IMG/VR virus record: IMGVR_UViG_3300010401_000003 | Span: 9,645 to 73,644 of that record | DNA: 64,000 bases | Source of the DNA: a virus | Strand: one strand, 5' to 3' | Part shown: piece after piece, positions 1,184-24,333 of the stretch | Layout: every line of letters starts with the position of its first letter | Position numbering within the stretch: position 1 is the stretch's first letter | The notes under the pieces: model-generated | Told to the model about the DNA's origin: nothing | The model's input: only the letters and a program-made list of their open reading frames with translations | The model's database searches: none | Translations under genes and position numbers: made by a program

Positions 1184-1789
1184 TCACGTGCTGCCGCGCA
1201 CGGGCAAGAGCGCGCGGATCGGGTGCTGGGTCAAAACCGGCTGGGCGCGGCCCACGGTCGCAGGCAGCGGGCCGCGGAAGGCCGCGAGCTCGGCGTTGGT
1301 CGCCGCGTCGGGTGTCCACGCTCCGTTTGAATAGCGGTAGAAGCCGCAATCCATTTTCGAAAACGCGCGCGCGCTCGGGTCGGAGGTGAATTCCGATTTC
1401 GCGGCCGTCCAGGTCGAGACGGCTTGGTTTTCCACGTACCAGAGGTGATATCCCTTCGCTTGCTCGAAGGCGGTGAGCTCCTCGAAGGAAGCGCAAGCGG
1501 CCGCGGCAGGGGCGCTCTCTTTCTTCAACGCCCAGGCGACGCCGAAGACCACCACCGCGCCGATCGCGATCGCGAGGAGCGTGCCAGCCGGATCGGCATT
1601 CTCCAACATGGCTTCGTCGTCCTTGCCTTCGCGGCGCAGGGCCGCGCGGCGCTCGGCGGCGCTCATCTTGTGGTACCAGAGCGCGCCGCACACCGCGCCC
1701 GGGTTTCGCGCAGAGCGTGAAGCGCCGCGCACGCAATCGCGCATCCACTTCTTGGGCGGACGCCGCGGGTTTTCCTGTGCCGCAGTCAT
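1184..1789 (-). CDS. Membrane protein with basic N-terminal NP-motif segment (putative virion protein)
   Basis: ATG at 1789 overlaps upstream stop (TGATG). MTAAQENPRR..ARNPG..MLENADP, then TM helix LLAIAIGAVVVFGVAWAL. Confidence 0.65.
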   Translation of the reverse strand: MTAAQENPRRPPKKWMRDCVRGASRSARNPGAVCGALWYHKMSAAERRAALRREGKDDEAMLENADPAGTLLAIAIGAVVVFGVAWALKKESAPAAAACASFEELTAFEQAKGYHLWYVENQAVSTWTAAKSEFTSDPSARAFSKMDCGFYRYSNGAWTPDAATNAELAAFRGPLPATVGRAQPVLTQHPIRALLPVRGST

Positions 1790-2367
1790 CACAGAATCTT
1801 TTCGACCAGCGCGTAAGACAATCCGCCGAGCGCCGTCGCTGTGCCGGTCGCGCCGGTCACGCGAAGCTTGACGGTTTGGCCCGCGCTTCCCGTCGTCACG
1901 AAGGTCTCCGCCGTCGGTTGCGGCTGCACGCTGTTGGTGTTCGTGACCGGAGTCAGATACGCGCCGTGGCCCGCATGGATCGGCAGGTTGGTGATCGCGT
2001 CGACCCACTCGATGCCGAAATTGACGGTTTCTCCGCTGAAGGTCGAAAGCGCGAAGTGCGCGCTCAGTCGAAAGGTGCCGCTCGGGCCGAGGGTGAAGAT
2101 CCCCGTCGCGGGGTTGTACGCTATGTCGCCGAAGCCGGCGTCGTCGAAGCGAATGTCGGTGTTGTTCGCGAGGAGCTGTCCCGGGCCGAGCGCGTTGTAC
2201 TCGGTTTGCACGAAGTTGCCGCTCTGCGACGGATGCGACGACTGACCGGACGATCCACCTTGCAGCGATTCGACCGCGTCGCTGATTTTCTGCGCCCAGT
2301 TTCCGGCCGGCGAGGAAAGCTGAAGTTGTCCGCCGACGGCTTTCAACGCGTCTCTGATCAGGCCCAT
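1789..2367 (-). CDS. Spike/fibre-head protein with QLQLSSP adaptor and C1q/BclA-like beta domain
   Basis: N-terminus IRDALKAVGGQLQLSSPAGNW; C-terminal YNPATGIFTL..VKLRVTGATGTA; paralog of 23713-24333. Confidence 0.6.
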   Translation of the reverse strand: MGLIRDALKAVGGQLQLSSPAGNWAQKISDAVESLQGGSSGQSSHPSQSGNFVQTEYNALGPGQLLANNTDIRFDDAGFGDIAYNPATGIFTLGPSGTFRLSAHFALSTFSGETVNFGIEWVDAITNLPIHAGHGAYLTPVTNTNSVQPQPTAETFVTTGSAGQTVKLRVTGATGTATALGGLSYALVEKIL

Positions 2368-2371
2368 GTGC

Positions 2372-2656
2372 TCAACTCCCTTTCCAAAACCAGTACGCCA
2401 ATCCTACCAGCACCGCGACCACTCCGATCGCCGCGGGCGATAGGCCCGCGCCCGAAGTCTTCGGGGAGGCCGAAGGGTTGGGCGATGGAGAAAGACCAGA
2501 GGCAGGGAGGGGGGAAGAGCCGGTCGTGCCCATGAAGTCGGGCGGAAGAATCACGCTCTTCGCACATTGTCCTACCGCAGCGAGATTGCCGGAGCTCGAG
2601 AGTACTCGCCGCCCCTGCCGCGGAACGATCGCTTGGATTGGGTGAAAACCCAACAT
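2372..2656 (-). CDS. Small tail-anchored membrane protein
   Basis: AAVGQ motif, Ser/Pro-rich linker, C-terminal TM AAIGVVAVLVGLAYWFWK. Confidence 0.6.
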   Translation of the reverse strand: MLGFHPIQAIVPRQGRRVLSSSGNLAAVGQCAKSVILPPDFMGTTGSSPLPASGLSPSPNPSASPKTSGAGLSPAAIGVVAVLVGLAYWFWKGS

Positions 2657-2657
2657 T

Positions 2658-3431
2658 TCAGCCTACGTAGCACGCCGAGTCGGGTGCTTTGGGGTCGATC
2701 GCGTTCCAGCGGGCGGCGAGCGTCGCGATGAGAGCTGCAGGCATGACTGCCTTGGCCTGGTAGATGTGATCGGCCGTGCCCATCGGTATGTCCCTGTTTT
2801 CAAAGCCGTAAATGATGAGACCGCCGCGGCGGCGCGGAGGCTTTGAGGGTGGGATTGGGTAGGCGACGGTGCGATCCGGCCCGGTCACCGGTCCGCCTTG
2901 CACGTGGACGCTGGTCGGGAGGATCGGCAAGACCGGCGCTTTGGGGTCTTCCGAGGGCGCCAGGCCGCCGCTCAGCGTTTTCCAGAGCCAATCCGCGGTT
3001 TCGGTCGTGCTCGCGTAAGTGGGTTTTACGGCCGAATGGGTGATGGTGAAGAGGCGCTCGTTGAGAAACGCGAGCTTGGCGAAGTTCAGCCAATTGGTCA
3101 TCGCGGCGGGGGTGATGGGTTTTCCCGTGTGGATTCCATCGATTGCCACCGCCGCGTCCAAATGGCCGCCATCGCTCGAGGCCAAGAGCGAATGCACGCC
3201 TTGACACGAGGCAGAAAACCCCAGCGTCGCAATCCGCAGCGGCGTCACCCCGGGCGCGAATTTCGCGACGATCGCTCGTACCGGGGATGGCGAGGAATAG
3301 CTTGCGAGCGGTTGCCCCCAGCTCGCCGGATTCGGCAGCACCAGAAAACGCGTCGGCCGCTGAAACGCGGCCTTGGCCGCCTCGGGAAATCCAGAGTGCG
3401 CCCAGGCAATCACGATGTCCGCGTCGGCCAT
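2658..3431 (-). CDS. Alpha/beta-hydrolase-like protein
   Basis: Nucleophile elbow-like LGFSASCQGV, then AVAIDGIH and a late DH. Start reassigned to MADAD at 3431. Confidence 0.5.
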   Translation of the reverse strand: MADADIVIAWAHSGFPEAAKAAFQRPTRFLVLPNPASWGQPLASYSSPSPVRAIVAKFAPGVTPLRIATLGFSASCQGVHSLLASSDGGHLDAAVAIDGIHTGKPITPAAMTNWLNFAKLAFLNERLFTITHSAVKPTYASTTETADWLWKTLSGGLAPSEDPKAPVLPILPTSVHVQGGPVTGPDRTVAYPIPPSKPPRRRGGLIIYGFENRDIPMGTADHIYQAKAVMPAALIATLAARWNAIDPKAPDSACYVG

Positions 3432-3442
3432 CGAAGAGAAGG

Positions 3443-5284
3443 TTACCGCTTTTTCCGGCGGTTCGGAAGGCGGCGCCGGCGGCGCGGCGCGGGCGGCGGC
3501 GGCAATGGGTCCTTCGCGCGCTCGGCGCCGACCGCTAAAATTGCAATGAGCGCGAGCGCGAAGGCGCCCGCGGCCAGCCATTTCACCCAACGGAGGTCTT
3601 CGGCCGGCTTTTCTTCGGCGACCGGGATCGCGGCGAGCTCGCGGGTCACCACGGGTAATGCTGCTCGCAACGTCTCGGGCACCGGCAACGTCACCGCCGC
3701 CGGGATCTTCGGCACGCGCGCGAAGCGCTCGCGACTGAACGGATCCGCATAGCCGAACGGGATCCGCTCGAGCGGATCGGCGTAGTGCCAGCGCCCGTCC
3801 GCCCAAACAGCGACCAGAATGCGCTCGTCGCGGATTTGATAGGTGTGCGCCACGATCGCCGCATGAAGGCCCGCATCGATGTAGCCCGCGGCGAGCAAGC
3901 TCGAGAGTTGGAGGTCCGATCCGGGACTGCCGCGCACGGCGTCGAGGAGCTCCGCGGCGCGCTTGGTTTCGCTCTTCACTTTTCGCGCGTAGTAACGGCC
4001 CCACTCGAGGACATCGAGACGCTCTGCCTCGAGCGCGGACTTTTCAGCGATCGCGTCGACATCGGCAGCTGGCGCGGTTTCTCCATAGGTGTCGATCGGG
4101 GCGAAGTAGAACGATCCGCCTCCGGCGGCCGTCGAGCTCGACGACGGCGCGATCGGTTTTGGTTTGGTCGGTACGATCGGTTTCGGTTTGGGCGGCGTCG
4201 GAGGCGTCGGAGGCGTGAGACTGATGAGTGCGCCGGTTTGCGCAAAGGACGCGGACAGTGTGCCGGCGATGTCTGTGCGGGTCGTCAGATCGCCGGATTG
4301 ACCAAAGCTTGCGGCCGTTACAGCCGCGAACGCACCGACGCCCGCGAGCGTGGCCGATTGAGAGAAGAGCGCGGCGGAGACGGCGACGAGCGGCGCCTCC
4401 GCAGTTAAATCGCCCGTTTCTCCGAAAAGCGCGGCCGACGTCGTCAGAAGCGCGCCGGCCGCGTCGAGTGCGCCACTCTCGCTAAAGGTCGCGGCGGTCA
4501 AAGTCAGAAGCGCGCCGGCGCCGCTGAGATCGCCGGATTCGAGGAAAGTCGCCGCGGCCTGTCCGAGAAGGGCGGTGTTCGAGAGAGAGGCGGTCTGATC
4601 GAAGATCGCGGCGGCGGACGCTAAGAGAGCGCCAGACGCTTCTAGAGTCGCTGATTGAGAGAAGAGCGCGGAGGAGAGGCTCGCGAGGTCGCCTGCGCCG
4701 GCGAGCGCGCCCGTTTGGCCGAACAAAGCCGAGGTGATGCCTGCGAATGGTCCCGTCCCGGTCAGCGACTCCGTTTGACCGAAGACGGCGGAGATCGAGC
4801 CGGCGAGGGCGCCCGCGGCCGTGAGATTGCCGGTCTGGGAAAAGGTGGCTGGGTTATTTGCGGCGAGCGCGCCGGAGGCCGTGAGAGCGCCAGTCTGGTT
4901 AAACGCGGCGGGGGTCGTTCCTGCGAGTGCCCCGGAGCCGGTCAGATTTCCCGTTTGATTGAATGCGGCCGAGCTCGTCGCGGACAACGCGCCCGCTCCG
5001 GTCAAATTGCCGGTTTGCGCGAAAGTCGCGGCGTTGGTGGCGGCGAGGGCGCCGGTGCCGCTCAAAGATCCGGATTGGCCAAAGACCGCGTCGCTTACCG
5101 CTGCGAGCGCGCCGGCTCCGGCCAGGTTTCCGGTTTGGCCAAAGAGCGCATCGGAAGTCGCAGAGAGCGAGTTGTCTCCGGAAAGGGAAAGGCCCGTCGC
5201 CAGCGGATGAATGACGTTGGAAATCGCGATCGCGGTCCGCGATCCCGGCACCAGCGAAACTATCGGGCGAAACGCCGCAGGCAT
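3443..5284 (-). CDS. Repeat-stalk protein with inactive transglutaminase-like domain and C-terminal TM anchor
   Basis: About 16 x 20-aa repeats, a Pro linker, DGRWHYADP domain aligning with 40533-41279, a TM helix and an Arg-rich tail. Confidence 0.65.
   Translation of the reverse strand: MPAAFRPIVSLVPGSRTAIAISNVIHPLATGLSLSGDNSLSATSDALFGQTGNLAGAGALAAVSDAVFGQSGSLSGTGALAATNAATFAQTGNLTGAGALSATSSAAFNQTGNLTGSGALAGTTPAAFNQTGALTASGALAANNPATFSQTGNLTAAGALAGSISAVFGQTESLTGTGPFAGITSALFGQTGALAGAGDLASLSSALFSQSATLEASGALLASAAAIFDQTASLSNTALLGQAAATFLESGDLSGAGALLTLTAATFSESGALDAAGALLTTSAALFGETGDLTAEAPLVAVSAALFSQSATLAGVGAFAAVTAASFGQSGDLTTRTDIAGTLSASFAQTGALISLTPPTPPTPPKPKPIVPTKPKPIAPSSSSTAAGGGSFYFAPIDTYGETAPAADVDAIAEKSALEAERLDVLEWGRYYARKVKSETKRAAELLDAVRGSPGSDLQLSSLLAAGYIDAGLHAAIVAHTYQIRDERILVAVWADGRWHYADPLERIPFGYADPFSRERFARVPKIPAAVTLPVPETLRAALPVVTRELAAIPVAEEKPAEDLRWVKWLAAGAFALALIAILAVGAERAKDPLPPPPAPRRRRRLPNRRKKR
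4220..5190 (-). repeat. Tandem ~60-bp (20-aa) coding repeat LxGxGALxxxxxAxFxQTGx, ~16 copies
   Basis: Counted directly in the translation. Confidence 0.85.
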
Positions 5285-5299
5285 GGCCGCGTCAGCCTA

Positions 5300-6073
5300 T
5301 CAGTTGCGTGATGCGTACATCATCCACTGCGGAGTCAAGGTGTTCGAGGCGCTCGAGGTGCCCCAGATCACCGAGACACTCAAGCCCTGCGCGACCGTCT
5401 GATCGATGGTCGTCGGAATGAGGCCGCCAAAAACGCAGGTGGCCACCGTGGTCGCCGCAGCTGCGCCGGCACAGATCACAAATCCCGACCCGGTGATGGT
5501 CGCCGTGCTCGCGGCGACTCCAATTGAGCGGCAACCAAAGATTCCGGAGCCGTGGAAAGGCTGGGCTGTGAATGTGCCCAGCGTCATCGTCGGCCCAACG
5601 CCGAGGTCGACTCCGGTCGGCGGCGCGGCGTTATTCGTGCCGCAGCGGGCGCGAAAGCTGATCGCCGGTGTGCCGGTCGTCCCGTGCACGCCGCCGAAGT
5701 CGAGTTGCCAGGCACGGCCGCTTCGGATTTCGCCCACGGGGAGCGGCGCGAGAACGCCCGGATCCCAAAGGTTGGTTTCGGTGACCGTCGTGTTGATCGC
5801 TGCGCGGAGCGAAGCGGAAGGAAACTCGGTGTAGTCGCTCGAGGTGAAGCCCTGCTTCGAGCACAGCGCTTCGGAGAAGCGCTCTTCCTGCATACGAGCG
5901 AGGATTTTTTTGACCTGCTCCGGTGCGCGATCGAAGAGCCATGCGCGATGATACGGCCCGAACATCACGCCAGCGGCTTGCTCGCGCTCGATCGCCCAAC
6001 GGGGATCGAACTCTCGAGTTATTTTTTCGAGGTCGATCCCGTGTTCGTGGCTGACTAGCTCGATGAGGCGCAT
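5300..6073 (-). CDS. Putative virion structural protein (beta-rich C-terminal domain)
   Basis: Gly/Thr/Ala-rich beta-strand pattern within the fibre cluster; likely start MRLIELV at 6073. Confidence 0.5.
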   Translation of the reverse strand: MRLIELVSHEHGIDLEKITREFDPRWAIEREQAAGVMFGPYHRAWLFDRAPEQVKKILARMQEERFSEALCSKQGFTSSDYTEFPSASLRAAINTTVTETNLWDPGVLAPLPVGEIRSGRAWQLDFGGVHGTTGTPAISFRARCGTNNAAPPTGVDLGVGPTMTLGTFTAQPFHGSGIFGCRSIGVAASTATITGSGFVICAGAAAATTVATCVFGGLIPTTIDQTVAQGLSVSVIWGTSSASNTLTPQWMMYASRN

Positions 6074-6074
6074 G

Positions 6075-6523
6075 TCAATCCACGGTGCAAACGAGAGCAC
6101 CGATCGCGAACGATGGGGTGATGCCGGGGTTTATGACGAGCGAGGCCGTCAGCGCGCCGTACCAGAGCATTTCACCCGCGCCGCTCGTGTCGCGGCCGAC
6201 GTTGAAGTGCGTCATGGTCTGCGGGCCGCTTCCCGCCGACGCGTAGGTGATTGCGGCGACGTTTGCCGACTGCGTCGGGGCCGTGCCCGACACAGTCCAG
6301 CCGCCCGCCGAGCGCGCCACGGGCACGCGGGCGTAGTTGGTCCAGGTCGCTTCGTTGGTGAGCTGGGTGCCGGTTTCGCCCGGGTCGGCGGTTTGAAGCC
6401 CTATGAAGAACGATCCGGCCGTGGTGCTTCGCGGAGCCCCGTGGCATCGCCGAGGTTTGCCCAGTTGGTGTTGTTGAAGATCAACAACATCAGGTCGTTC
6501 TCGGCGGCGTTTCCTAAGCTCAT
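6075..6523 (-). pseudogene. Conserved phage fibre-associated structural protein, split by a 1-nt deletion near 6430
   Basis: ATG 6523 gives MSLGNAAENDLMLLIFNNTNWANLGDATGLR; the -1 frame continues (G)STTAGSFFIGLQTADPGE..NEATWTNYARVPVARS, a familiar phage protein pattern. ATGA overlap with the upstream gene. Confidence 0.7.
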
Positions 6524-6807
6524 GATTTGGCTCCCAGGTCAGCTTCACGAACGAGCCTGTCGACTTCGGCCCAGAGATCCTTCCCATGTTTCTTCTGCCG
6601 GTAATGCACGTCGTCCGGATCTTCGCCACTGGCGGCGGGAGGGGTCGGCAACTGTGCATGGAGCGCCTCGAACACCTTGGTGCGCGTGGCGCGCACGAGC
6701 GCCTCTTCTAGCGGCAGGTCGCCATGGACGCGGCGATCGCGCTCGTGCTTCATGATCTCGGCCTGATAGAGAGATTGGACGTCCGCCTCGGTGAGGGTGT
6801 GCTTCAT
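6520..6807 (-). CDS. Hypothetical protein
   Basis: MKHTLTE start at 6807; translationally coupled at both ends. Confidence 0.55.
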   Translation of the reverse strand: MKHTLTEADVQSLYQAEIMKHERDRRVHGDLPLEEALVRATRTKVFEALHAQLPTPPAASGEDPDDVHYRQKKHGKDLWAEVDRLVREADLGAKS

Positions 6808-7058
6808 TTGGGGTGCCTCTTCATTTCTCCGAGCACGAAGGCCGCAACGTCCTTCATGTCGACTCGGCCGTCCTTGGTTTGGCACTTCTCCATGGCTTCG
6901 GTGAGAAGCCTCGAAAGCGCGTCGATCGCAGTCGTGTCTTCCACGATCTGGTCGAGACGCTCGACCGCGGATTTGCCATACAACAGGCGCATCCGCTGGC
7001 GCAGACCCGGCGTCGGGCGGGCGACTCCGGAGAGCACGCCGTTGTCAACGACTTTCAT
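6804..7058 (-). CDS. Hypothetical protein
   Basis: Helical ORF coupled to the downstream gene (ATGA). Confidence 0.55.
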   Translation of the reverse strand: MKVVDNGVLSGVARPTPGLRQRMRLLYGKSAVERLDQIVEDTTAIDALSRLLTEAMEKCQTKDGRVDMKDVAAFVLGEMKRHPK

Positions 7059-7115
7059 CGCCCCAAGAGTAGCCCCATTTCAGTCCGCGTAGCACGCGGT
7101 AATCGGGCTAACCGC

Positions 7116-7496
7116 TCAGCAGCGCTCGATTTTGAAGTCCATGACGATGCCGCCGGCAGTCGGCGCCGCGAAGGCTACCTGAAATCCAATGGTCGCCTTG
7201 GCGGGGATCGCGAATTGCTGCAAGTTGCCCCCGAGCATGGTGCCGATCACGATGTAGTTGGTGTCGGGTTGCACGCAGCCCTCGGGGAACGGCACGAACT
7301 GACTCACCTGTCCGTTGGCGATCGGAACGTGTAGGAGACAGCAGCCGCCCGCCGCGGGCGCGTCATCGCCACCCAGATTGCCGCCACCTAAGCCAGCGAC
7401 CGCTTGAGCCAAACGCATGAGAGCTCGGCCTAGCGGCGATCCAAGCTGCACTTGGCTGCCCACATTTTTGACGATGTCTTCGATTGCTGTTGCCAT
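7116..7496 (-). CDS. Small fibre/spike-like protein with QVQLGSP adaptor
   Basis: N-terminus IEDIVKNVGSQVQLGSPLG; short beta domain; good RBS AAGGGAG. Confidence 0.6.
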   Translation of the reverse strand: MATAIEDIVKNVGSQVQLGSPLGRALMRLAQAVAGLGGGNLGGDDAPAAGGCCLLHVPIANGQVSQFVPFPEGCVQPDTNYIVIGTMLGGNLQQFAIPAKATIGFQVAFAAPTAGGIVMDFKIERC

Positions 7497-7511
7497 GATT
7501 TGTCTCCCTTA

Positions 7512-7811
7512 CTACTTCACCGGCACCGCGACGACCAGCGCGAGAGCGCCGTCCGGATCGTCGTAGGCGAATTTTGGGGTGTCCGAGGGGTCTTCGGGAT
7601 CTCGCGGCAACTCGCGGCGCGCGGCGTTCCAGCCGTCATCGGTGTAAGCGCGGCACTCGCCGGTCGCGTCGATCAGATGCGTGTGAAGGCTTCCCCTGTA
7701 GCCGAGCTCGGCGGCCGCGGCATGCAGGATGTCACTCACGTCGTCGCCATCGAACACGTTCGGGGGGTACGTTTTTCCAACGACTGTGATCGCGTAGGCC
7801 ATGGGTTTCAC
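7512..7811 (-). CDS. Hypothetical protein
   Basis: Coupled (GTGA) to the upstream fibre gene. Confidence 0.5.
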   Translation of the reverse strand: MKPMAYAITVVGKTYPPNVFDGDDVSDILHAAAAELGYRGSLHTHLIDATGECRAYTDDGWNAARRELPRDPEDPSDTPKFAYDDPDGALALVVAVPVK

Positions 7812-9475
7812 CAGTATCCGTACATGTGGATAAAATCCATTTGGTTATTGGTGGCGCCCTTCGAGCTCTGCACGCAGGTCGGACGAAGGTTGGTGGTGTT
7901 GAGCGGCAGCGTCGCGGAAATGTCTGCGTCGTGCACGACGGTGTTGGTAGAACGATTGATCAGCGTCGTGTGGATCTTGGTGTCATTGGGGAGCGCCCAC
8001 ATCTGCACCTCGAACACGCAGGGTCCGGCCGTGTTTGGGTCGCCGGTCACGAGCGAAGCTTTGGTGATGATTGCGGCCGACTTGGTGCTCCCACCGACGT
8101 TGTCAGTGCTGATGACGGTGATGTTGGCGTCTCCGGTGTCGGCTCCATAGACGACCCGGTTACCGCTCGCGCTCGGGTTGGCACCTCCGGCGATCACGGC
8201 GTTGTTGATGCCGATGGAAATGATCGAGTCGGTTTGGATGACCGCGACCGCGAAGCGGAAGCAAACGAAGAACCCACCCACTCCCGCGACGGCACCGCGG
8301 CACATGCCGGGGTCGGTGAAGTTTTGGCCGACGAGAATGTTGGCCGTCGAGGTCGTGGTGTTGTTGCGCGGGCTCGAGGTGCGGAGATCGGTGTTGGTCG
8401 GCGAAACGGTCGTCACGCCGGTCAGGGCGTTCGTGGTGAGACCGAGACTGTCTTGCAGACCGCCGTTGCTGCGCGGGATCACGTAACGAAAAGAACGCGA
8501 CAGGACCGCGGTGCCCACTAACGCTTGAGGGATGCGAGCGAAAGAGGCGGTGGAAGCTCCTGCCTGGAGCGCCGCCGACACCTGCACGTCGTCGGCGTTG
8601 ACGACGACGGAGCCATCGGCGTTTTGGCCGACGTCAAAGGTGCGATTGGCGGAGAGGTCGCCGCCGCCTGTCAGACCCGCTCCAGCTGTCAGCGTGCGCG
8701 CGGGTTGCACGCTGGTCGCTCCGAGCGCGGCTCCCGATTGGATCGCGGCGGACACCTGCACGTCGTTGGCGTTTACGACTACCGAGCCGTCAGCATTTTG
8801 GCCGACGTTGAAGGTGCGATCGGCGGAGAGGTCGCCGCCGCCCGTCAGGCCCGCGCCAGCCGTCAGCGTGCGCGTGTTCGGGACGGAGAAGGCTACGAGA
8901 GAGTCGAGTGCGGCCTTGTCGGCCGCGCTCATGAAGCCCGCGACGAGGTTGGTGGCTATTGCGTGGAGGGCGCCGCCAGAAAGGTTTCCGTGGTTTGCGT
9001 CAGCGATGACGCCCACACGGATGTCGTCCGCGCCGACGATGATCGTGCCGTCGGCGGCGACGATGTTAAACGTGCGATCTGCCGAGAGCTCGCCGCCGCC
9101 GGTCATGCCCGCGCCGGCCGTCAAGGTGCGTGTGACCGGAACGTACGGACCACCCGCGACCAGCGCATCGAGCTGTGCCTTGTCGAGGGCAGACATGAAG
9201 CCAGCGACCAGCGGCGTCGCCAGATCGTGGAGCGTGCCGCCCGGAAGATTTCCGTGCGCGTGGACGTGATCCGCGCGCGACGCAAAGAACGAGTTCCCTC
9301 CGGACCCGACGACCCCAACGGGCATCGCGGAGTTTCCGAACGGAGTCGCTCCGCCCGCAGCGATGATGCCCGCGTCGGCGAGACGCGAAATCAGTTGCAT
9401 CCACACGCCGAGCGGCGACGACAGTTGGATCTGTCCGCTCGTGGCCTTCAGAACGTCTTCGACTAACCCGGACAT
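7808..9475 (-). CDS. Fibre/receptor-binding protein
   Basis: QIQLSSPLGVW adaptor; 3x RTLTAGAGxTGGGxLSAxRTF and 2x AGFMSAxDKAxLD fibre repeats; SRADHVH; beta-rich head. Confidence 0.75.
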   Translation of the reverse strand: MSGLVEDVLKATSGQIQLSSPLGVWMQLISRLADAGIIAAGGATPFGNSAMPVGVVGSGGNSFFASRADHVHAHGNLPGGTLHDLATPLVAGFMSALDKAQLDALVAGGPYVPVTRTLTAGAGMTGGGELSADRTFNIVAADGTIIVGADDIRVGVIADANHGNLSGGALHAIATNLVAGFMSAADKAALDSLVAFSVPNTRTLTAGAGLTGGGDLSADRTFNVGQNADGSVVVNANDVQVSAAIQSGAALGATSVQPARTLTAGAGLTGGGDLSANRTFDVGQNADGSVVVNADDVQVSAALQAGASTASFARIPQALVGTAVLSRSFRYVIPRSNGGLQDSLGLTTNALTGVTTVSPTNTDLRTSSPRNNTTTSTANILVGQNFTDPGMCRGAVAGVGGFFVCFRFAVAVIQTDSIISIGINNAVIAGGANPSASGNRVVYGADTGDANITVISTDNVGGSTKSAAIITKASLVTGDPNTAGPCVFEVQMWALPNDTKIHTTLINRSTNTVVHDADISATLPLNTTNLRPTCVQSSKGATNNQMDFIHMYGYW

Positions 9476-9477
9476 GG

Positions 9478-11136: not shown

Positions 11137-11140
11137 GGCT

Positions 11141-12193: not shown

Positions 12194-12224
12194 CGTCGTT
12201 CTCAGAGCTTATGATGCGAGCACC

Positions 12225-13220: not shown

Positions 13221-13247
13221 CATCTTGTTGCAAGATGTTACATCTTG
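13217..13247 (+). promoter_or_regulatory. Sigma70-like promoter overlapped by three ACATCTTG boxes (direct/inverted/direct)
   Basis: TTGACA at 13217; ACATCTTG 13220-27, CAAGATGT 13231-38, ACATCTTG 13240-47; ATG at 13252. Confidence 0.65.
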
Positions 13248-13251
13248 CTAC

Positions 13252-16029: not shown

Positions 16030-16069
16030 CTCGACCCCGAGTGTCGTTCGAGAGGCCCGGTCCGGTCAA

Positions 16070-16570: not shown

Positions 16571-19500
16571 CTATTCGATTCCCATCGCGCGGAGCATGTT
16601 CGGGAAAGAGTGGCGGGCGGCGTACGCGGACTGGCGCTCGAGCGCAGCTCTGCGCTTGTCGTCGTCTTCCAAGAGATCTCTCACGACCGCGTCCACTTCT
16701 TCTTTGTTTTCGTAGACGACGACCGCGCCGACGTGGCCGTGCAGGTCGAAGTAGGATTTGCTCCGGTCGACGACGAGCGGGATCTTAGCGGCCATGCAAA
16801 AACGCGCCGAGGCTGACGAATAGGCGCGACTCGTTGCGACGCGCGCCAGCAAGGCGACGCGGTGGCGCGCGAGCTCGGAAGCGCACTCGGCTTCGTTCAT
16901 GAAGGCTCGTCGGGGGCGAAAGCGGCGCCAGCCGCGGGTTTCGTACCATGACGAGATTTGGTCGAGCCGCGGTCCGTAGCCGTAGATCGGGACGCCGAGG
17001 CGCTCGGCGACGCCGACCAAGAGATCGATGCGACGACTCGGATCGGCGAAGCCCATGAAGGCCAGGCCGCCGAGTGGCTCACGGAAGGGCATTTCGAAGG
17101 ACGGTACCGGGAGCGGGCAGTAGATGCCGCCGGCCCATTCGAGCGCTTCGGGATGATGGAAGACCAACAGATCGGAGTGGTCGCGGTAGGCATGCATGTT
17201 GTGCAGCCACTCGAGCGAGGTTTCCGCGTGGTGATAGTTCACGAATATTTTCGCGCCGCGGGTCCGAAGGATTTCTAGATTTTTGATGTCGCCCGGTCCG
17301 AGCGCCTCGCCTGTTGGCTGGCAGCCCCATTGCACTTGCAAGATCACCGATTTCACCGGGCGCTCGTCGGACACTTGTCGAGCTACGTCGATCGAGCGCA
17401 CCCACGACGCGCGCTGGTGGGCGTCCCGCAAAAACATCGCATGGCTCGCGACCCCGTGGGGGACGGAATTCGGCCGGTAGACGATCAGGAGCTCGGACTT
17501 TTCTCGGGCGATGACCTCGGCGGCTTCGAGTGGGCGCTCGGCGTCGAGCAATTCACGCAAGGTGAAAGTTCGGGCGAGCTCGGCGACGTAATCGGAGGGA
17601 GCCTCACCGGTCCATTTTTCGTGAAGTGTGGCCGCGGCAAGCTTGGGGAGAGCGGTGTTTGCGTGGCCGCGGATTTCTACCGCGTGGACCTCGTGCGGGT
17701 GATGCACCTCGGCAGCCGGATCGGCGTAGATGGCAAATCCCGCGCGCCGCATGTTCTTGGAGAAGCCGACGACGTCGTCGGTCTCGCTGAATCTCACGCC
17801 GCCGTAAATCGGAGCCGCGCGACAGAAGAGAACGCTGCCCACGGACTCGAGCTCGATGGGCGATTGCGCGAACCTCGCGACCTCATCGCGCGTTGGCCCT
17901 TTGCCAAAGAGCGGATCGATATGGCCGGCGCTCCGGCGGAAGGCCCAGGAGTCGTAAAACTGATTTCCACGCCAAACCATCGGCGCCACAAGGCCCGCGC
18001 GGGGACGCTCGTCGAGTGTTCGTTGGAGCCGCTTCGCCAGATCGGGCGCGTACATCAAATCGGAGGTCAGGAAGAGCACGTATTCCACTTCGAGATGCTC
18101 GGTGATGAAGTCGAGGCCGACGTTGGACACGTGCGCGAGCGTCTTTAGGCGGACCGGGTTTAGCGTGGAGCCGAAGAGCGGGTTACCGAGCGAGACGTGC
18201 AGCACGGACACTCGATCGTTCTCCCTGGCCCACGCATCCAACAAATCCGGAGTCTCGTCGGTGCTGTCGCCCTCGACGCACACCACGAAAGGACGCTCGG
18301 CCCAGTCGAGCGATTCGATCTGCGCGCGATAACGACGCACGACCTCGGGGCATTGACGGAAGAGCGAGACAATCGCGAGCCGGTTTTTCTTCACGTCGCG
18401 CGGCGGCGGGCGCGGCGCGACTCGAGCGATCGTCGGCGATACCAAATCTTCGAGGAGCGTGCGCATGAGCGCACCGACGTCGGCCGAGGTGAAGCCTGCC
18501 CACGAACGCCGCTCTCTTTTCGGTAACGGGTGGGCAGCGGCCTCCTGCATCGCGGCGGCGGCACTGTCCAGATCGAAGTCCCACCACTTCGCATCAGGTT
18601 CCCAGCCGTAGACCGGATCGCACGGCAGCATCGCGCTCGCTTTCACGCGAATGTCGCCCTCGGCTGCAAACTCTTCGGGGCCGCCTGATTCGGAATAGAT
18701 CATCCGGTTTCCCGACAAGAGCGCGTCGAACGCCGGCATGTCCCATCCCTCTCCGTGGGAGAGCGACAGATAAACGTCGCCGTCGCGGTGAAGCGCCAAG
18801 AGCTCAGCCTCCGACCACACCTCGACGGGCACCCGCACCCACTGTCGTATTGACTCAGTCGTCCAGCCGTTTGCGCGCACCTCCGGATCAGCCAGCAGCG
18901 TCCAAAGATCGGCGAGGCTCCCGGCAACGTGGGTCGTCTTCAGTGTGAGGCGCGCTTCGCCAGGACGGAACGCGCGCAAAAACGCATGCAGGCTTTTCTT
19001 TTGGTCCTTGCGCGTGTCGAGCACGCCGATTCGATAGAAGTGGATCGGACCCGGTGAGCGCTCGCGGCCCAGCAAGCCTAGATGCGGATCGTTCGGGAAG
19101 AAGGGGACATGGACTTTGTGCAAACGGAAGTCCTGCACCCCGGAATTGCGAAAGGCATCGATGTTCTTTTGGTTCGGGAGCCACCATTGCTTGACGCGAT
19201 TGGCCTGAGCGACGCTTTGAGGACCGATGCGATCGCGCTCGATCATCGTCGTTAGCGCGACGGGCAACGGACGCGAAACAAGGCGATTTATTTCGGCCGC
19301 TTGCTCAGCATCGCCGCGGGTCGGGAAGCCACCCACGAAGGCGCTGACTGGGAGCGCGCGCAGCATGTCCATCACTTCCGCCGCGGCCTCGGGGCGCGCG
19401 TGGCCGTAGAAAGGATCGAGCGTGAGATACACCGGGAGCCGCGTGTCGCTGAGAGCTCGCGCCAATCGTCGCCATGCCGCGCAGATGCCCACACCCCAAA

Positions 19501-19708
19501 GCGCCCACGGGGCGTGAAACTCCGCGGCGCTGAGAGCGCCGGTGGCAACGGGCGGGGGCGGCGGAGCCGGCGGAGGCGGATACTTCGCTGTTACGCGCAC
19601 GGTCGGCTGCGCGCGATTTTTTCCAAAGCGTTGCTGCTGAAGCGCGCGGAGTTTTGATTGCCACTGATTGCGCTGCGTTTTGCTGTACATCAGAGTGTTT
19701 TCATCCAC
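16571..19708 (-). CDS. Tri-modular glycosyltransferase (GT4-like + GT-A/GT2-like + GT-B-like)
   Basis: RK..SHGEGWDMPA (GT4); VEGDSTDET..FYDSWAFR..ESVGS (GT-A); FMGF..YSSASA (second GT-B). Confidence 0.8.
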   Translation of the reverse strand: MDENTLMYSKTQRNQWQSKLRALQQQRFGKNRAQPTVRVTAKYPPPPAPPPPPVATGALSAAEFHAPWALWGVGICAAWRRLARALSDTRLPVYLTLDPFYGHARPEAAAEVMDMLRALPVSAFVGGFPTRGDAEQAAEINRLVSRPLPVALTTMIERDRIGPQSVAQANRVKQWWLPNQKNIDAFRNSGVQDFRLHKVHVPFFPNDPHLGLLGRERSPGPIHFYRIGVLDTRKDQKKSLHAFLRAFRPGEARLTLKTTHVAGSLADLWTLLADPEVRANGWTTESIRQWVRVPVEVWSEAELLALHRDGDVYLSLSHGEGWDMPAFDALLSGNRMIYSESGGPEEFAAEGDIRVKASAMLPCDPVYGWEPDAKWWDFDLDSAAAAMQEAAAHPLPKRERRSWAGFTSADVGALMRTLLEDLVSPTIARVAPRPPPRDVKKNRLAIVSLFRQCPEVVRRYRAQIESLDWAERPFVVCVEGDSTDETPDLLDAWARENDRVSVLHVSLGNPLFGSTLNPVRLKTLAHVSNVGLDFITEHLEVEYVLFLTSDLMYAPDLAKRLQRTLDERPRAGLVAPMVWRGNQFYDSWAFRRSAGHIDPLFGKGPTRDEVARFAQSPIELESVGSVLFCRAAPIYGGVRFSETDDVVGFSKNMRRAGFAIYADPAAEVHHPHEVHAVEIRGHANTALPKLAAATLHEKWTGEAPSDYVAELARTFTLRELLDAERPLEAAEVIAREKSELLIVYRPNSVPHGVASHAMFLRDAHQRASWVRSIDVARQVSDERPVKSVILQVQWGCQPTGEALGPGDIKNLEILRTRGAKIFVNYHHAETSLEWLHNMHAYRDHSDLLVFHHPEALEWAGGIYCPLPVPSFEMPFREPLGGLAFMGFADPSRRIDLLVGVAERLGVPIYGYGPRLDQISSWYETRGWRRFRPRRAFMNEAECASELARHRVALLARVATSRAYSSASARFCMAAKIPLVVDRSKSYFDLHGHVGAVVVYENKEEVDAVVRDLLEDDDKRRAALERQSAYAARHSFPNMLRAMGIE

Positions 19709-20880
19709 GTAACTATTTCGTTGCCGATGTGCTGAGCTCGGAAGCGATCGCGCGGCCAGTCGAGAACTTGCACGGGGGGCTCACTACGAACGCGAGCCAT
19801 GGCCTCGACGAGTTTTTCTAATTCATAGTCGGCGTAGGTCGACGAGTGCTCCCAGCCGTGCGCCGTGTAATCGGGATGCACCGGCACCTTTCCCGTCGAG
19901 GGAATGAGAATGTCCTCGGATCCCAAGAAGTCGCGTGGGCCGCCGGAGTCGGTGGTGATGACGCGCCGCTTGGCGAGCTTGGCCGCGTAGGCGGGCATAT
20001 CGAATCCCTCGCCACGCGAAGCGGAAACGTAAACGTCGCCCGGGGCGTGGATCAGTCGAATCAGATCGGGTCCGGACAGGGTGCGGCTCTCGATGCGGAT
20101 CGATTCCGACCAGTTTTCTTTCGTCCAGCCGTTCGTGCCGAAGCTCTCTGCCGCGACCGTTTCGGGCGTGGGCATGCTCCGGTGCACGTATTGACGCTTG
20201 ATCGTGAGCGTCGCGTCACCAGGACGAAACGCGCGCATGAAGGCTCGGATGAGATTGTCGGGCGCCTTGTGCGGACTCCAGGAACCGATCCAGTAGAATG
20301 CCTTCGCCTCCTGCGGCGGATCGAGGCGCAACAGCTCGTCCTCGTCAAAATGCGGTACGCCGAAGTGGCGGACGTTTTTCAGACCGAGCGCCTCGAGCGC
20401 CTCACGATTCGCGCTACAGGGCACCCAAACACCGACCAAGCGCGCGAGCGATGATGCGATCGCCGGATCAAAGTCTTGGCGCTCGAACATTGTATGAAAA
20501 ATGGTCTTCGGCTTGGTGGGCAGCGCTCGGATCGCGCGACCGAGCTTTTGCGCCGTTGCAAACGCGCCGGACCACACGCGGATATCGATATCCAAGGCGT
20601 TACACGGTTTGCCCAAGTGTCCGGCTTCCCTTGCCACTTCGTCAGACCGAGTCGGAATGGGCGGAAGCCGCACGTCGGCGCCAACTAGAGCGAGCGCGCG
20701 CGCCCAAGCGCGAGCTGCGATGTCCCAGCCCACCTCGAGCCGACTCCAAGGAATATCGAAGCGCACGTAGGGATCGCCCGCGCGGGGCGGGATCACGGGC
20801 TCTACGCCCGGGCGAAAGCGTTCCTCTTGGAGTTTTTTCAGGCGCTCAATCCACGTTATTTCAGGCATCGCTCGATCCAT
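19690..20880 (-). CDS. Glycosyltransferase, family 4-like
   Basis: HKAPD, YVSASRGEGFDMPA, TDSGGPRDF. Confidence 0.85.
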   Translation of the reverse strand: MDRAMPEITWIERLKKLQEERFRPGVEPVIPPRAGDPYVRFDIPWSRLEVGWDIAARAWARALALVGADVRLPPIPTRSDEVAREAGHLGKPCNALDIDIRVWSGAFATAQKLGRAIRALPTKPKTIFHTMFERQDFDPAIASSLARLVGVWVPCSANREALEALGLKNVRHFGVPHFDEDELLRLDPPQEAKAFYWIGSWSPHKAPDNLIRAFMRAFRPGDATLTIKRQYVHRSMPTPETVAAESFGTNGWTKENWSESIRIESRTLSGPDLIRLIHAPGDVYVSASRGEGFDMPAYAAKLAKRRVITTDSGGPRDFLGSEDILIPSTGKVPVHPDYTAHGWEHSSTYADYELEKLVEAMARVRSEPPVQVLDWPRDRFRAQHIGNEIVTWMKTL

Positions 20881-21971
20881 TCACTGAATTTTTTGGCCAC
20901 AGCTTCGGGCCGGTGAGCTTCGGGCAACGCGCGCTTTTTCGGCGGCCTCTCCTTGGCTTCGCGAAGCGCCCACATAAGATCCGAGAGCGGATAGTCGATC
21001 AGCGATTGGCCCTCTCCCCAAATTCCGGCGTACTCGGGGGCCGCAATGGTGCCCGTGGCGTGCACCAAGATGTCGTCTTGGTCCAAGAAGTCTTCGGGGC
21101 CGCCCGAGGCGGACGTCACGATGCGCCGGCCGGCAAGGCGGGCGCGGAAAGCGGGCAGGTCGATGCCCTCGCCGCGGCTCGCGGAAGCGTAAATGTCGGT
21201 GCGCGCTTCGAGCGCGAGCATCTCATCCGCAGACAGCGTGCCATCGATGATCTCGATCGCTTGGTGCCAGTTGTCGACACGCCAGCCGTTGTCTCGCGTC
21301 TCTCCGCACTCAAGCTCGGAAGCAATTACGAGCTCGGGGCCGGCGTAGACCGATCGCGTCCATTGGACGGCTCCGATCTTCAGGATGAGCTCCGCCTCGC
21401 CGAACTTGAAGGCACGCATGAATGCGCGAAGCAGTCGATCGGGGGCTTTGCGCGGCTCCCACCGGCCGTGCCATGCGAACACGCGAGGGCGGTCGCTTGG
21501 CGGCGGCAGCGACAAATGAGGATCGTCGTCAAAGAACGGCAGCGGGATCACGCCGACGTCGTCGAGACCCGCGGCCGAGAGACGCTCGCCGTTCTTTTCG
21601 CAGGGGACGAATACGCCTTCGAGCTCGGCGAGCTCGGCGACCACTTCCTTCTGCACCGCGATGCGCTCGAACATCGTGTAAAACATGCGCGGCCGGCGAG
21701 AGGCGCGGAGCGCCTCGAAAACATGACCCATGTTGTGAATACCGCCGAGCGGGCACGAAAAAATGTAGGCGTCCCACGAGCTCACCGGGATTGTGAGCGG
21801 CAAGTACTTTTTGATTTCTTCGTTCGGGGCCGATTCGGTGAAAACCTGCACCGGCGATTTCAAGCGGACATCCCAGCCGGCGAGAAGCATCGCGCGCGTG
21901 TAGGCCCGGGCAGCGATCGCCCAGCCGTCGGCGGGATTGGCCCACAGGGTCTCGAAGACGAGCGTTTTCAC
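20856..21971 (-). CDS. Glycosyltransferase, family 4-like
   Basis: RKAPD, YASASRGEGIDLPA, SGGPEDF; paralog of the adjacent GTs. Confidence 0.85.
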   Translation of the reverse strand: MKTLVFETLWANPADGWAIAARAYTRAMLLAGWDVRLKSPVQVFTESAPNEEIKKYLPLTIPVSSWDAYIFSCPLGGIHNMGHVFEALRASRRPRMFYTMFERIAVQKEVVAELAELEGVFVPCEKNGERLSAAGLDDVGVIPLPFFDDDPHLSLPPPSDRPRVFAWHGRWEPRKAPDRLLRAFMRAFKFGEAELILKIGAVQWTRSVYAGPELVIASELECGETRDNGWRVDNWHQAIEIIDGTLSADEMLALEARTDIYASASRGEGIDLPAFRARLAGRRIVTSASGGPEDFLDQDDILVHATGTIAAPEYAGIWGEGQSLIDYPLSDLMWALREAKERPPKKRALPEAHRPEAVAKKFSEWIERCLK

Positions 21972-22288: not shown

Positions 22289-22369
22289 ACGCGCTCGTAG
22301 CCTACAACGGCTGTGCACTTTTTCGCTACTGGTGGCGCAGACCCCGGGGACCGCGCTACGGTCCCGGCC

Positions 22370-22966
22370 ATGGACCGCGACCCCACCGCTATCGTTTTTT
22401 CCCTTGGAATCCTGATCTTGGCTGCCGTTGCTATCGCGTTCGTCGGCATGTTTCTGCACCGTCGCCGCGAAACGGAAAGTCCGGCGCTTCGGCGCGAGCG
22501 CGAGATTTCGCGAAAGCGGAGCCTCGATGCCGGAACCCATGTGGCGCTTTCAGATGGCTCGATCGTTCCATCCTGCGAAGTGAACGGGTGCAAATCGGCC
22601 GCGAAGTGCCGCCCGCTGAAGTTCGCGCGCGAAGAGGGGCTCGGGGACTTCGTGCGGCGGCTCTTTGGAGCTCCGCCGCGGCTTCGGGTGATCGAAGACG
22701 TTTGGGGCGAGCCGGTCCGCTGCGAGAGCCATCAGTTTTTGGCTCGTGAGGAAATGCGCCTCAAGCTCGCCGACGTCGAACGGCGTCGGCAAGAACATCA
22801 GCGCGACGCCGAAGTCGAGCTCGGCCAATTCGAGCGCACGCTGAAAGACCGCGTCAGCCTGGTCGTCAGCAAACACGAACGACAGCTCGGCGGACGCAAG
22901 CGCAAGAGCGACGCTGGGAACGTGCTCCCTTTTTCGTCGTCGCGGCCGACCGGCACTCAGGGGTAA
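22370..22966 (+). CDS. Single-TM protein with Cys/His motif and coiled coil
   Basis: N-terminal TM, CEVNGC..CESH, charged helical C-terminus. Confidence 0.55.
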   Translation: MDRDPTAIVFSLGILILAAVAIAFVGMFLHRRRETESPALRREREISRKRSLDAGTHVALSDGSIVPSCEVNGCKSAAKCRPLKFAREEGLGDFVRRLFGAPPRLRVIEDVWGEPVRCESHQFLAREEMRLKLADVERRRQEHQRDAEVELGQFERTLKDRVSLVVSKHERQLGGRKRKSDAGNVLPFSSSRPTGTQG

Positions 22967-23401
22967 ATGAAAACTGCGGCGGCGATGTTTCTCGCGCTTC
23001 ACCCGTGGTGGGCGACGATCAAACATGAGGCCCGCCGCGAGCACGTCGATCCCTACGCGCTCGCTGGGATCGTTTGGCACGAGAGCCGCGGCAACCCGAA
23101 TGGGTTCTTTCAGGAGCGCGGGGGGCACTGCTCGATCGGGCTCGGGGGCGTTTTCGTAAAGAACTGCGATCCCGCGCGCGTCGCGGCGCTTCGCAATGGC
23201 CCTTACAACCTCCGCGTTTCGGCCAAGATCCTTTCGGGCTCGATCCGCTACTGCAAGGCGCATCGGCTCGAGCGGCGCTGCGCCGCGGGCGAACGCGTTT
23301 TCCCGGGCGGCGGCGGCGCCAACCTCTACGCGGGCAACACCACGCGATTCGCGGCGGAATTGGCCAAGATCCGACGCGACGTCCGGCGCGCCTTTCGCTA
23401 G
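22967..23401 (+). CDS. Lytic transglycosylase (SLT-like)
   Basis: ALAGIVWHESRGNP catalytic Glu motif, IGLGGV (GLMQ-equivalent), YNL. Confidence 0.65.
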   Translation: MKTAAAMFLALHPWWATIKHEARREHVDPYALAGIVWHESRGNPNGFFQERGGHCSIGLGGVFVKNCDPARVAALRNGPYNLRVSAKILSGSIRYCKAHRLERRCAAGERVFPGGGGANLYAGNTTRFAAELAKIRRDVRRAFR

Positions 23402-23712
23402 AGGTTGGGGTTTCTTACGCGCCAGCGCTGGGCGCCGGACGTGGACCGCGCTTTCGGGGTTTGCGATGGCGGTCGAGATCCGGTCGGCCGGTCGCGTCGT
23501 GAAAGCTTGAGCACGCGCACGAGATCGGCGTGGCGTCTGCGCCGTCGCTCGAGGAGGTCGAGGTACGCCTCGAGCTCGCGGCGGAGTTTCTCGCGGCGGA
23601 TCTCTTCGGGATTCGCACCGCGCCAAATGACGCGAGACGTCGCATCGCCGGTGCTTATGATTGTGATTGTCGAATTCGCGGCAACCACAAACTCTGTCTG
23701 ATCCGCGTACAC
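23398..23712 (-). CDS. Hypothetical protein
   Basis: Directly follows the fibre gene; charged helix. Confidence 0.4.
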   Translation of the reverse strand: MYADQTEFVVAANSTITIISTGDATSRVIWRGANPEEIRREKLRRELEAYLDLLERRRRRHADLVRVLKLSRRDRPTGSRPPSQTPKARSTSGAQRWRVRNPNL

Positions 23713-24333
23713 TTACCGAAGCTGCTTCACGACCGCGCCGAAAAAGTCGGCCGGGATCGACGCGGTGCCGGTGGCGTTGGTGACGCGGAGTTTCACTTGC
23801 GCGTCCGTCGTGCTCGAGGGGATGAACACCGCGCGGGTGCGACCGCCGTTGCTCGAGGCGTTGGTTTGGGTCGACGGCTTGTAGATGCCGGTGATGTTTC
23901 CGAAGAGCGGCACGTTGGTGTTCGCGTCGACCCAATCGATCGCGAAGAAGCCGGCGGCTGCGTCGCTGAAAGTTCCGACCGCACCCCCCGCGTCGAGCTC
24001 GTAGACTTTTCCGGGGATGAGCGTGTAAACGCCGGTGTTGAAGTTGTAGGTCGCGGATCCGCGAACGAAGATCGTGTTGTTGAGGATGACGTCCGAGCCG
24101 GTCGTCAGGAGCGTCTGATCGAGACCGGCGCGCTTGGTCTCGAGGATGTCGAGATCGAGGCTCGCGCCTCCGCCGCTTCCGCCGCCGCCTCCGACGGGCG
24201 TGACGCCGAGCGCGATCAAGAGCAGGTCCACCTGATCGATCACCTCGCTGACTTTTTGCGCCCAGTTTCCGACCGGACTCGTCAGTTGGAGCTGCGAAGA
24301 GGCTGCTTTCAGTGCGTCGCGGATGCGTCCCAT
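23713..24333 (-). CDS. Spike/fibre-head protein with QLQLTSP adaptor and C1q/BclA-like domain
   Basis: IRDALKAASSQLQLTSPVGNW; YNFNTGVYTL..IDWVDANTN..VKLRVTNATGTA; paralog of 1789-2367. Confidence 0.6.
   Translation of the reverse strand: MGRIRDALKAASSQLQLTSPVGNWAQKVSEVIDQVDLLLIALGVTPVGGGGGSGGGASLDLDILETKRAGLDQTLLTTGSDVILNNTIFVRGSATYNFNTGVYTLIPGKVYELDAGGAVGTFSDAAAGFFAIDWVDANTNVPLFGNITGIYKPSTQTNASSNGGRTRAVFIPSSTTDAQVKLRVTNATGTASIPADFFGAVVKQLR

Follow-up and report, generated by a model that had tools for sequence, protein, structure and literature searches.

A short, predicted helical N-terminal module shared by five putative fibre proteins of an uncultured soil bacterial virus

We have analysed a 64,000-nucleotide stretch (the window) corresponding to bases 9645-73644 of the 73,644-bp virus record IMGVR_UViG_3300010401_000003. 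Five genes of the window encode proteins with differing C-terminal parts that all begin with the same segment of about 37 residues, here called the module. The module is shared, N-terminal and sharply bounded. Judged from the sequences compared, it is fused to many types of head domain and the complement of genes carrying it varies among relatives, and modelling predicts that it is helical and located in a trimer interface. On balance, we favour the interpretation that this N-terminus is a portable helix-loop-helix, three copies of which would pack against one another to form the base of a fibre trimer, and that the common base most likely mounts otherwise unrelated receptor-binding proteins on the particle of this uncultured bacterial virus. 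With the attachment end kept constant, entire head genes could then be acquired, lost or exchanged.

Results and discussion

Five proteins begin with the same module

The module is found in five minus-strand open reading frames (ORFs) encoding proteins of 126-555 residues (P0001 to P0005, Table 1). A first-pass annotation of the window had described an N-terminal adaptor of ~35 residues on these genes, and it gave their positions and first residues correctly. The first ~37 residues of the five proteins align without internal gaps, with D6, K9, Q16, L17, S19 and G22 being invariant and the other N-termini showing 33-55% identity to the first sequence. P0002 has A/L at the site of W24 in the other copies. 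When a hidden Markov model (HMM) of the five N-termini was run against the six frames of the whole 73,644-bp genome, it recovered exactly five matches, each at a start codon and with E-values from 1.8e-22 to 1.8e-18, the next-best match having an E-value of 2.2. The E-values of the five copies place their similarity far beyond chance. In addition, the profile-profile alignment (hhalign) of the P0004 family with two module proteins bearing a Beta_helix domain covered residues 1-37 and then stopped (probability 97.8%), which argues for a sharp module boundary. The proposed adaptor was thus recovered in all five proteins, with its boundary at residue 37.

At the DNA level the five copies have diverged, with a mean column identity of 61% over 189 columns, including 60 nt upstream, and their upstream DNA has in common only ribosome-binding-type purine runs. 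The similarity is therefore kept at the protein level, and we take the copies to be old paralogous modules under protein selection and not products of recent gene conversion. The five genes had been called dispersed, which is slightly overstated. P0005 does lie apart, past the glycosylation cluster, but the other four form a single minus-strand block (1789-11136). P0004 has its start coupled to the stop codon of the gene that precedes it, with gene 11141-11767 lying directly upstream.

The module matches no described family and recurs in other proteins

Residues 1-37 were covered by no Pfam, PHROG or NCBIfam model, and the best match of the module to Protein Data Bank (PDB) sequences had an E-value of 0.27. 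By sequence, it is a member of none of the described anchor families (T7 gp17 N-terminus, P22 head-binding domain and similar), and neither sequence nor fold searches matched it to SLH, CWB2 or any lipid-binding domain. The first-pass annotation would have given way to a characterized domain with another role; the libraries searched returned no such match. Two module proteins, P0041 and P0004, had no tblastn match in 50,697 GenBank phage records, among which positions 1-24000 of the window had no megablast match.

To find the module elsewhere, we have used a profile of six modules, namely the five of this genome and a divergent sixth from a relative. Against 1.84 billion (1.84e9) representative proteins, it gave 103 matches at E<=1e-3, with 11 at E<=1e-10. 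The 103 matches were re-scored locally into classes. The largest class comprised 62 proteins of 56-818 residues with one module starting at residue 1-3, 37 of them having 160-230 residues, the size of the BclA-like class described below. Another 32 matches were proteins of 93-130 residues consisting of two to three tandem modules and little else. Two proteins combined several modules with a large C-terminus (P0012, three modules and a Kelch domain; P0035, two modules and a BNR-like domain), one carried a single module at residues 25-62, and six matches were doubtful.

A Pfam scan was performed on 68 of the 103 matches, covering 55 of the 62 proteins with one module at residue 1-3, the two proteins with several modules and a large C-terminus, the one carrying its module at residues 25-62, four of the 32 small tandem proteins and all six doubtful matches. 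Kelch (P0012), Beta_helix (P0079) and SGL/NHL (P0105) domains scored above the cut-off, and BNR (P0035, P0102), BclA_C (P0059) and collagen (P0052) below it. Conservation among the 62 single-module proteins was highest at G22 (61 proteins), followed by W24 (58), L17 and S29 (55 each), D33 (52), and L8 and G13 (51 each). The 20 matches looked up by exact sequence, which came from JGI/IMG, ENA and Logan, were all unnamed or labelled "hypothetical protein" and had no NCBI record. The search with a profile of the shared N-termini, as proposed in the first-pass annotation, hence found single-module proteins with varied C-termini elsewhere. This supported that the module is a portable unit joined to many unrelated C-termini of receptor-binding type, both here and in other metagenomic contigs.

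Different domains follow the module

The AlphaFold2 (AF2) model of P0005, obtained with a 48-sequence alignment, had a mean predicted local distance difference test score (pLDDT) of 89.0 and a predicted template modeling score (pTM) of 0.72. It shows a helix at residues 2-12, a loop and a second helix at residues 20-42. A Gly-rich linker, disordered in the model, then leads to a beta-sandwich at residues 61-206, with pLDDT above 90 over most of the sandwich. For this head, Foldseek returned 234 matches at E<=0.001, led by BclA, EDA-A1, C1q and TNF ligands. The best one was 2r6q, the BclA C-terminal domain (E 6.5e-7, template modeling (TM) score by target 0.70), and 4oul reached a TM-score by target of 0.78. 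The fold matches spanned TM-scores by target of 0.70-0.78 at sequence identities of 9-16%. The BclA/C1q-like head announced for the 206-residue P0005 was thus borne out by AF2 and Foldseek, and that of the 192-residue P0001 is probable from its 40% identity to P0005 over residues 1-188 (E 1.2e-26). The likeness to BclA, C1q and TNF heads would lie in the predicted fold and in the homotrimer model described below, whereas sequence identity is low and neither P0005 nor P0001 has a collagen stalk. The Pfam model BclA_C (PF18573) matched neither P0001 nor P0005, and their relative P0059 scored 33.5 bits, under the cut-off of 38.

The long repeat fibre predicted for P0003 was confirmed by its shaft repeats, which match both PHROG tail families (phrog_21962, E 2e-14; phrog_1197, E 1.9e-8) and solved fibres in the PDB (9j1l, FtbO, E 1e-4; 9d93, tail collar fibre gp4, E 2.1e-4). 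The DNA repeats D1, D2 and D5 add to the evidence for this shaft. P0004 has a shaft repeat in common with P0003 at residues 78-136, which matched 9d93 (E 7.4e-5) and no PHROG family. The first reading of P0004 as a beta-helix-like spike found no support. No Pfam family was found, the family profile gave no PDB match, and the hhalign comparison with the two Beta_helix-bearing module proteins was confined to the module. The beta-helix reading is therefore unsupported, since the remaining ~400 residues had no match at all. P0002, for which a short beta domain had been proposed, matched no Pfam, PHROG or NCBIfam family.

These fibre-type repeats bear on a different view of the five proteins, namely that they are not part of the particle and are instead secreted or exposed on the cell surface during infection or lysogeny, acting in superinfection exclusion or adhesion, with the module as a targeting or export tag. 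An integrase gene is present, so that lysogenic expression is conceivable. However, the shaft repeats resemble both tail-fibre families and tail fibres of known structure, and the module genes share a same-strand block with a gene for a GP4 gp80-type fibre protein. An export tag would also sit poorly with the stand-alone tandem-module proteins, and no signal-peptide-like hydrophobic core is visible in the five modules. We regard this view as most improbable.

The module is predicted to take part in the trimer interface

The P0005 homotrimer model obtained a score of 0.89, compared with 0.00 for the best of three controls, with the runs agreeing in at least 77% of the contacts and partner pLDDT being at least 81. 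Of the proteins used for calibration, 20 of the 30 solved as pairs of one chain attained the mark applied here, as did 1 of the 23 solved as single chains. This calibration was made with two copies and not with three, and a passing model supports but does not show binding. The predicted interface extends beyond the head and comprises residues 3-4, 7-8, 10-11 and 13-15 of one copy against residues 19-25, 27-29, 31-32, 34-36 and 38-39 of its neighbours. In this arrangement, helix 1 of each chain would pack on helix 2 of the next. The earlier proposal of a common docking and trimerization module is thus supported in its second part, with the modules standing in the inter-chain interface of the model. 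Docking is taken up below.

We have also modelled P0010, which consists of three tandem modules. Its six helices were arranged as three hairpins (pLDDT 76.4, pTM 0.70). The two models suggest that three hairpins form one unit, supplied either by the three chains of a trimer or by a single tandem chain. P0012, with three modules before a Kelch propeller, fits this three-hairpin reading. P0035, P0102 and P0105 do not fit it clearly, and the one-versus-three rule is therefore put forward as a hypothesis.

The interface could have a simpler meaning. The module might be a mere oligomerization or registration element, an N-terminal trimer clamp akin to foldon, with no docking and with attachment occurring elsewhere or not at all. 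Inter-chain packing is the sole function with direct model support, and the tandem-only proteins also model as packed hairpins, both of which agree with a clamp. Yet BclA/TNF-like heads trimerize unaided in solved structures, so a separate clamp would need no conservation as strong as that of G22 and W24 (61 and 58 of the 62 proteins). A clamp would also leave unexplained the stand-alone module-only proteins of ~100 residues and the conserved charged residues outside the named contacts. The conserved D6, K9 and D33 are absent from the inter-chain contacts named in the trimer model and may thus be free to serve a partner, although we see this as a weak argument, since the residues left unnamed are simply uncertain. 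Taken together, we consider a pure clamp unlikely, and retain the interpretation in which the packed modules also attach the fibre.

Several observations speak against that interpretation. The homotrimer model may owe its pass to memory of solved TNF/C1q/BclA trimers, and the N-terminal contacts are model output only. The P0010 model gave no Foldseek match at E<=0.001 (best E 3.3), and its best VIA Z of 4.6 reflects generic helical-repeat resemblance only, leaving a closed three-fold bundle unsupported. In only 2 of the 103 matches are several modules joined to a large C-terminus (three modules in P0012, two in P0035), and the other propeller-type proteins P0102 and P0105 carry a single module. 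No tandem-only protein is encoded in this genome or in its close relative G001. The case for virion docking is one of analogy, and the placement of the five proteins in the virion is inferred from their fibre-type domains and gene neighbourhood.

Module genes differ among related viruses

Module loci were sought with a degenerate DNA pattern, and these scans gave many chance matches. Among viral contigs two loci were found, one of them true (G001). Metagenome contigs gave 31 loci, 14 of which (from 12 contigs) had module ORFs and 17 had none. Genome contigs gave 18 loci, with one true case (L066) and 17 that lacked a module ORF, including two further contigs titled with the phylum of L066. The pattern match L019 was rejected, as no ORF starts there, and the locus assigned to the tandem-only protein P0011 in L069 proved false, being a primase/helicase-like ORF in which the HMM found no module. 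No locus was found in the same way for P0014, another tandem-only protein, whose longest contig has 73,302 bp.

The relative G001, a record of 77.6 kb, is colinear with this genome, the nucleotide identity being 75-97%, and it has six module genes. The extra gene encodes a 197-residue protein with a divergent module and a head of the collagen-like-minor-tail type (PHROG 30509, E 7e-11), and it is inserted exactly at window position 2657/2658, between two genes that in this genome are separated by 1 nt. L024, a more distant contig, has kept the glycosyltransferase and methyltransferase block and a P0004 homologue with 61% identity. The latter is followed by a different module protein of 683 residues with a Beta_helix domain and then by another module gene. 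Arrays of module genes were seen in L031 (three adjacent in 2.2 kb), L022 (two) and the L024 contig (four). The gene content of the relatives thus differs exactly at module-bearing genes, as seen with the sixth gene of G001 and the different spike at the syntenic place in L024. Both cases support cassette exchange, in line with the interchangeable plug-in repertoire that had been envisaged.

No reverse transcriptase family was found among 83 + 23 ORFs, nor any template-like repeat, as would be looked for in a diversity-generating retroelement. The long direct repeats were limited to two kinds, those of the fibre shafts (inside one shaft or shared between shafts) and the 60-nt units in gene 3443-5284. 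A search for an invertase switch yielded no convincing inverted repeats, only 11 scattered, GC-rich pairs of 24-30 nt with 70-88% complementarity. The sole recombinase found was a tyrosine integrase (L005:7573-8664), located outside the window ~2.8 kb beyond the first fibre gene. These results agreed with the earlier claim that neither a retroelement nor an invertase is involved, and therefore variation would occur via gain, loss and replacement of whole genes behind the constant module.

Docking to the particle and comparison with known systems

By analogy with the fibre anchors of phages and adenoviruses, we infer that the three-module base docks to a component of the virion and that all five proteins would use the same kind of site. 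This is suggested because the module is N-terminal, is conserved on heads that can trimerize by themselves and has a precedent in phage anchors. Conserved N-terminal anchor domains of phage receptor-binding proteins are described in PMC12692247 and PMC13352976. The anchors of tailed phages (T7 gp17-type; Klebsiella podophages KP32/K11/KP34 and KP192/KP195) resemble our case in having a constant N-terminus, differing distal parts and several such proteins per genome. The same segment followed by different distal domains, which defines the functional class of receptor-binding proteins with a shared N-terminal anchor, is found here in five of five proteins. Unlike those anchors, with which it has no sequence match, the module is a ~37-residue helix-loop-helix, occurs on five to six proteins per genome and is also found as stand-alone tandem triplets, and this virus has no recognizable tail, portal or terminase genes.

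Attachment through a common end is also seen outside the tailed phages. In adenovirus, the short N-terminal tail of the trimeric fibre docks on the penton base, and the genomes of some adenoviruses specify two or more fibres that share one tail. In PRD1, the P5 and P2 spikes sit at the P31 penton, so that a trimeric and a monomeric spike share one vertex. Our proteins have no sequence relation to either of them. SLH domains may offer a parallel between single and triple motifs. According to PMC4973711, CWB2 is a short helical motif that works as a three-motif unit, with three tandem copies per chain, and binds a cell-wall polymer. The module has no sequence or fold match to SLH or CWB2, whose ligand is a cell-wall polymer rather than a virus particle, and the comparison is one of analogy only.

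Spikes of the CBA120 type attach to one another via larger N-terminal domains in a fixed hierarchy, whereas all five proteins described here carry the same short module and no branching domain was seen. The branched tailspike complexes of Ackermannviridae (CBA120 TSP1-4) and of similar multi-spike phages resemble our case in their joint display of several receptor-binding proteins and in the modular acquisition of spikes (PMC11414711).

Placing one constant N-terminal anchor on a number of receptor-binding proteins is thus a design well known from phages. What is new is the short module, predicted to be helical and without a match in the libraries searched, together with the breadth of its fusion partners, the stand-alone tandem-triple proteins and a carrier virus that is unclassifiable. 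Many viruses change their host range by exchanging receptor-binding ends on a constant attachment end, and plug-and-play phage engineering builds on this principle. The present case adds a very small probable attachment module (37 residues), undescribed in the databases searched, which in uncultured viruses occurs on at least seven kinds of head domain. An unusual test of stoichiometry is offered as well, namely one copy per chain in trimers versus three in tandem, in single chains or alone. Since the module is short and sharply bounded, it should be an easy handle for finding the docking site and, through it, the particle architecture.

Genome context and particle type

The genome record, rated as 100% complete, carries direct terminal repeats, the end repeat measuring 123 bp. 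Its G+C content is ~64%, and the minus strand holds most genes between 1 and 47 kb. A 20,072-nt locus from a genome collection (L066) is 100% identical to this genome and is labelled as part of a Gemmatimonadaceae metagenome bin. The module was present in 1 of 401 genomes of the phylum of that bin, which is the bin holding this very contig, and the binning is therefore the only host hint. Literature searches on Gemmatimonadota phages, their virions and tandem N-terminal tail-fibre modules yielded nothing on the module or the virus group.

Pfam and PHROG scans of the called ORFs revealed none of the tailed-phage hallmarks (terminase, portal, HK97-type capsid). Six-frame searches of the whole genome for PF03354, PF03237 and PF04665 returned nothing at E<=1, very divergent versions being still possible. 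The A32-type packaging ATPase family was found neither in the ORF scans nor in the six-frame searches, and there was no credible Walker A motif inside a real gene of this genome. The capsid candidates that had been pointed out at 33090-35934 (394, 237 and 296 residues) are all without recognizable relatives or fold. The 394-residue protein had no PDB sequence match (best E 0.71), a poor Atlas model (pLDDT 0.25) and weak best feature matches (0.76-0.77) to RNA-virus capsid-like clusters, and the 237-residue protein was equally uninformative.

With no terminase, portal or capsid family found, the module could anchor the fibres to a non-protein part of the particle, either a lipid envelope or inner membrane, via two amphipathic helices, or a virus-made glycan. 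At least 10 minus-strand genes end in a membrane-type hydrophobic segment, followed in several of them by Arg/Lys-rich tails, and the fibre genes flank a cluster of glycosyltransferase, methyltransferase and GDP-mannose-dehydratase genes that shows synteny with L024. For CWB2, anchoring through tandem motifs has moreover been published (PMC4973711). Against such an anchor, residues D6, E/Q14, S19, G22, W24, S29 and D33 look like a specific packing or recognition surface and not like a generic amphipathic binder, the searches for SLH, CWB2 and lipid-binding domains were negative, and a virion membrane is itself putative. We hold this possibility to be distinctly unlikely.

A bolder picture can be drawn, to which we attach a low probability. 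The five proteins would be the spikes of an undescribed tailless, motorless bacterial virus, its particle built around a membrane with tail-anchored proteins. Three 37-residue hairpins would form a universal plug for one socket, with trimers giving one hairpin per chain and single chains giving three, and the stand-alone triple-hairpin proteins of ~100 residues in related viruses would act as fibre-less plugs or adaptors for that socket.

Table 1. Coordinates of the module genes and of other annotated features in the window
Feature	Coordinates	Strand	Description
Fibre gene 1, P0001	1789..2367	-	192 aa; module 1-37 (nt 2257-2367), linker of Gly/Ser, homologue of the P0005 head
Fibre gene 2, P0002	7116..7496	-	126 aa; module 1-38 (nt 7383-7496), Gly-rich linker, small Cys-containing C-terminal domain
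Fibre gene 3, P0003	7808..9475	-	555 aa; module 1-38 (nt 9362-9475), several TLTAGAGLTGGGDLSANRTF-type phage fibre shaft repeats, C-terminal domain
Fibre/spike gene 4, P0004	9478..11136	-	552 aa; module 1-37 (nt 11026-11136), one shaft repeat, ~400 aa without recognized fold
Fibre gene 5, P0005	23713..24333	-	206 aa; module 1-37 (nt 24223-24333), helix on to 42, disordered Gly linker 43-60, predicted jelly-roll head 61-206
Sugar-modification cluster	12168-21971		GDP-mannose 4,6-dehydratase, FkbM and C-methyltransferases, 1045-aa multi-glycosyltransferase, two more GT1-like genes
Cell-wall enzyme	22967-23401	+	SLT-type lytic transglycosylase-like; L022 homologue matches PF01464
Cell-wall enzyme	26325-27122	-	PG_binding_1 domain at C-terminus; matches endolysin PHROGs
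C-5 cytosine methylase	49306-50472		

Neighbouring genes

Two genes of the minus-strand block recall a chain-like fibre. According to PMC13730344, the podophages GP4, VP1 and A1002 have such fibres, with gp80-type dimers strung on a rope protein. The C-terminal ~110 residues encoded by gene 6075-6659 (-) match Pfam PF23140 (Gp80, the GP4 fibre I protein; E 3.2e-17, 63.5 bits versus a cut-off of 27). Its first 80 annotated residues look non-coding-like, and the true start is therefore probably later. Gene 3443-5284 (-) encodes 613 residues, with 16 tandem 20-residue repeats of the F-x-Q/E-S/T-G-x-L type (residues 48-354). Beyond the repeats come a linker rich in Pro, a globular region, a membrane-type helix near the C-terminus and a basic tail with 12 R/K in 26 residues. 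This protein might act as the rope in a chain-like fibre of the GP4/A1002 type that is here anchored in a membrane. The likeness concerns these neighbouring genes and not the five module proteins, and the membrane helix and basic tail do not appear in the published description as far as it was available. Docking of the modules on the 16 repeats was considered and set aside because the rope of GP4/A1002, according to the same source, binds gp80-type dimers and the neighbouring gene encodes a protein of that type.

The enzymes of the sugar-modification cluster (Table 1), whose synteny with L024 is partial, might serve to glycosylate the particle or the fibres of the virus itself. In the region of P0005, the 73-residue gene 24346-24567 is conserved, its counterpart in L049 adjoining the P0005 homologue. 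In L024, the GDP-mannose dehydratase homologue (L024:7854-9872, -) matches in two pieces (query 1-182 and 501-661) inside one 672-residue ORF. A possible explanation is that ~320 residues, either an intein or an inserted domain, have been inserted there.

Genes with a single hydrophobic helix near the C-terminus of their product form a run at 24572-33087 and 38486-40513 (-), and in some of them an Arg/Lys-rich tail comes after the helix, as in gene 31879-33087 with 13 R/K in 32 residues. The genome also carries RadC, DUF3560 and two endonuclease VII genes. Finally, three genes of the run just described (27964, 28656 and 30312) have the common N-terminal motif M-x-M-R-W-L-E-x-K-V-x-x-L-G-A, which is a second shared N-terminal element of this genome.

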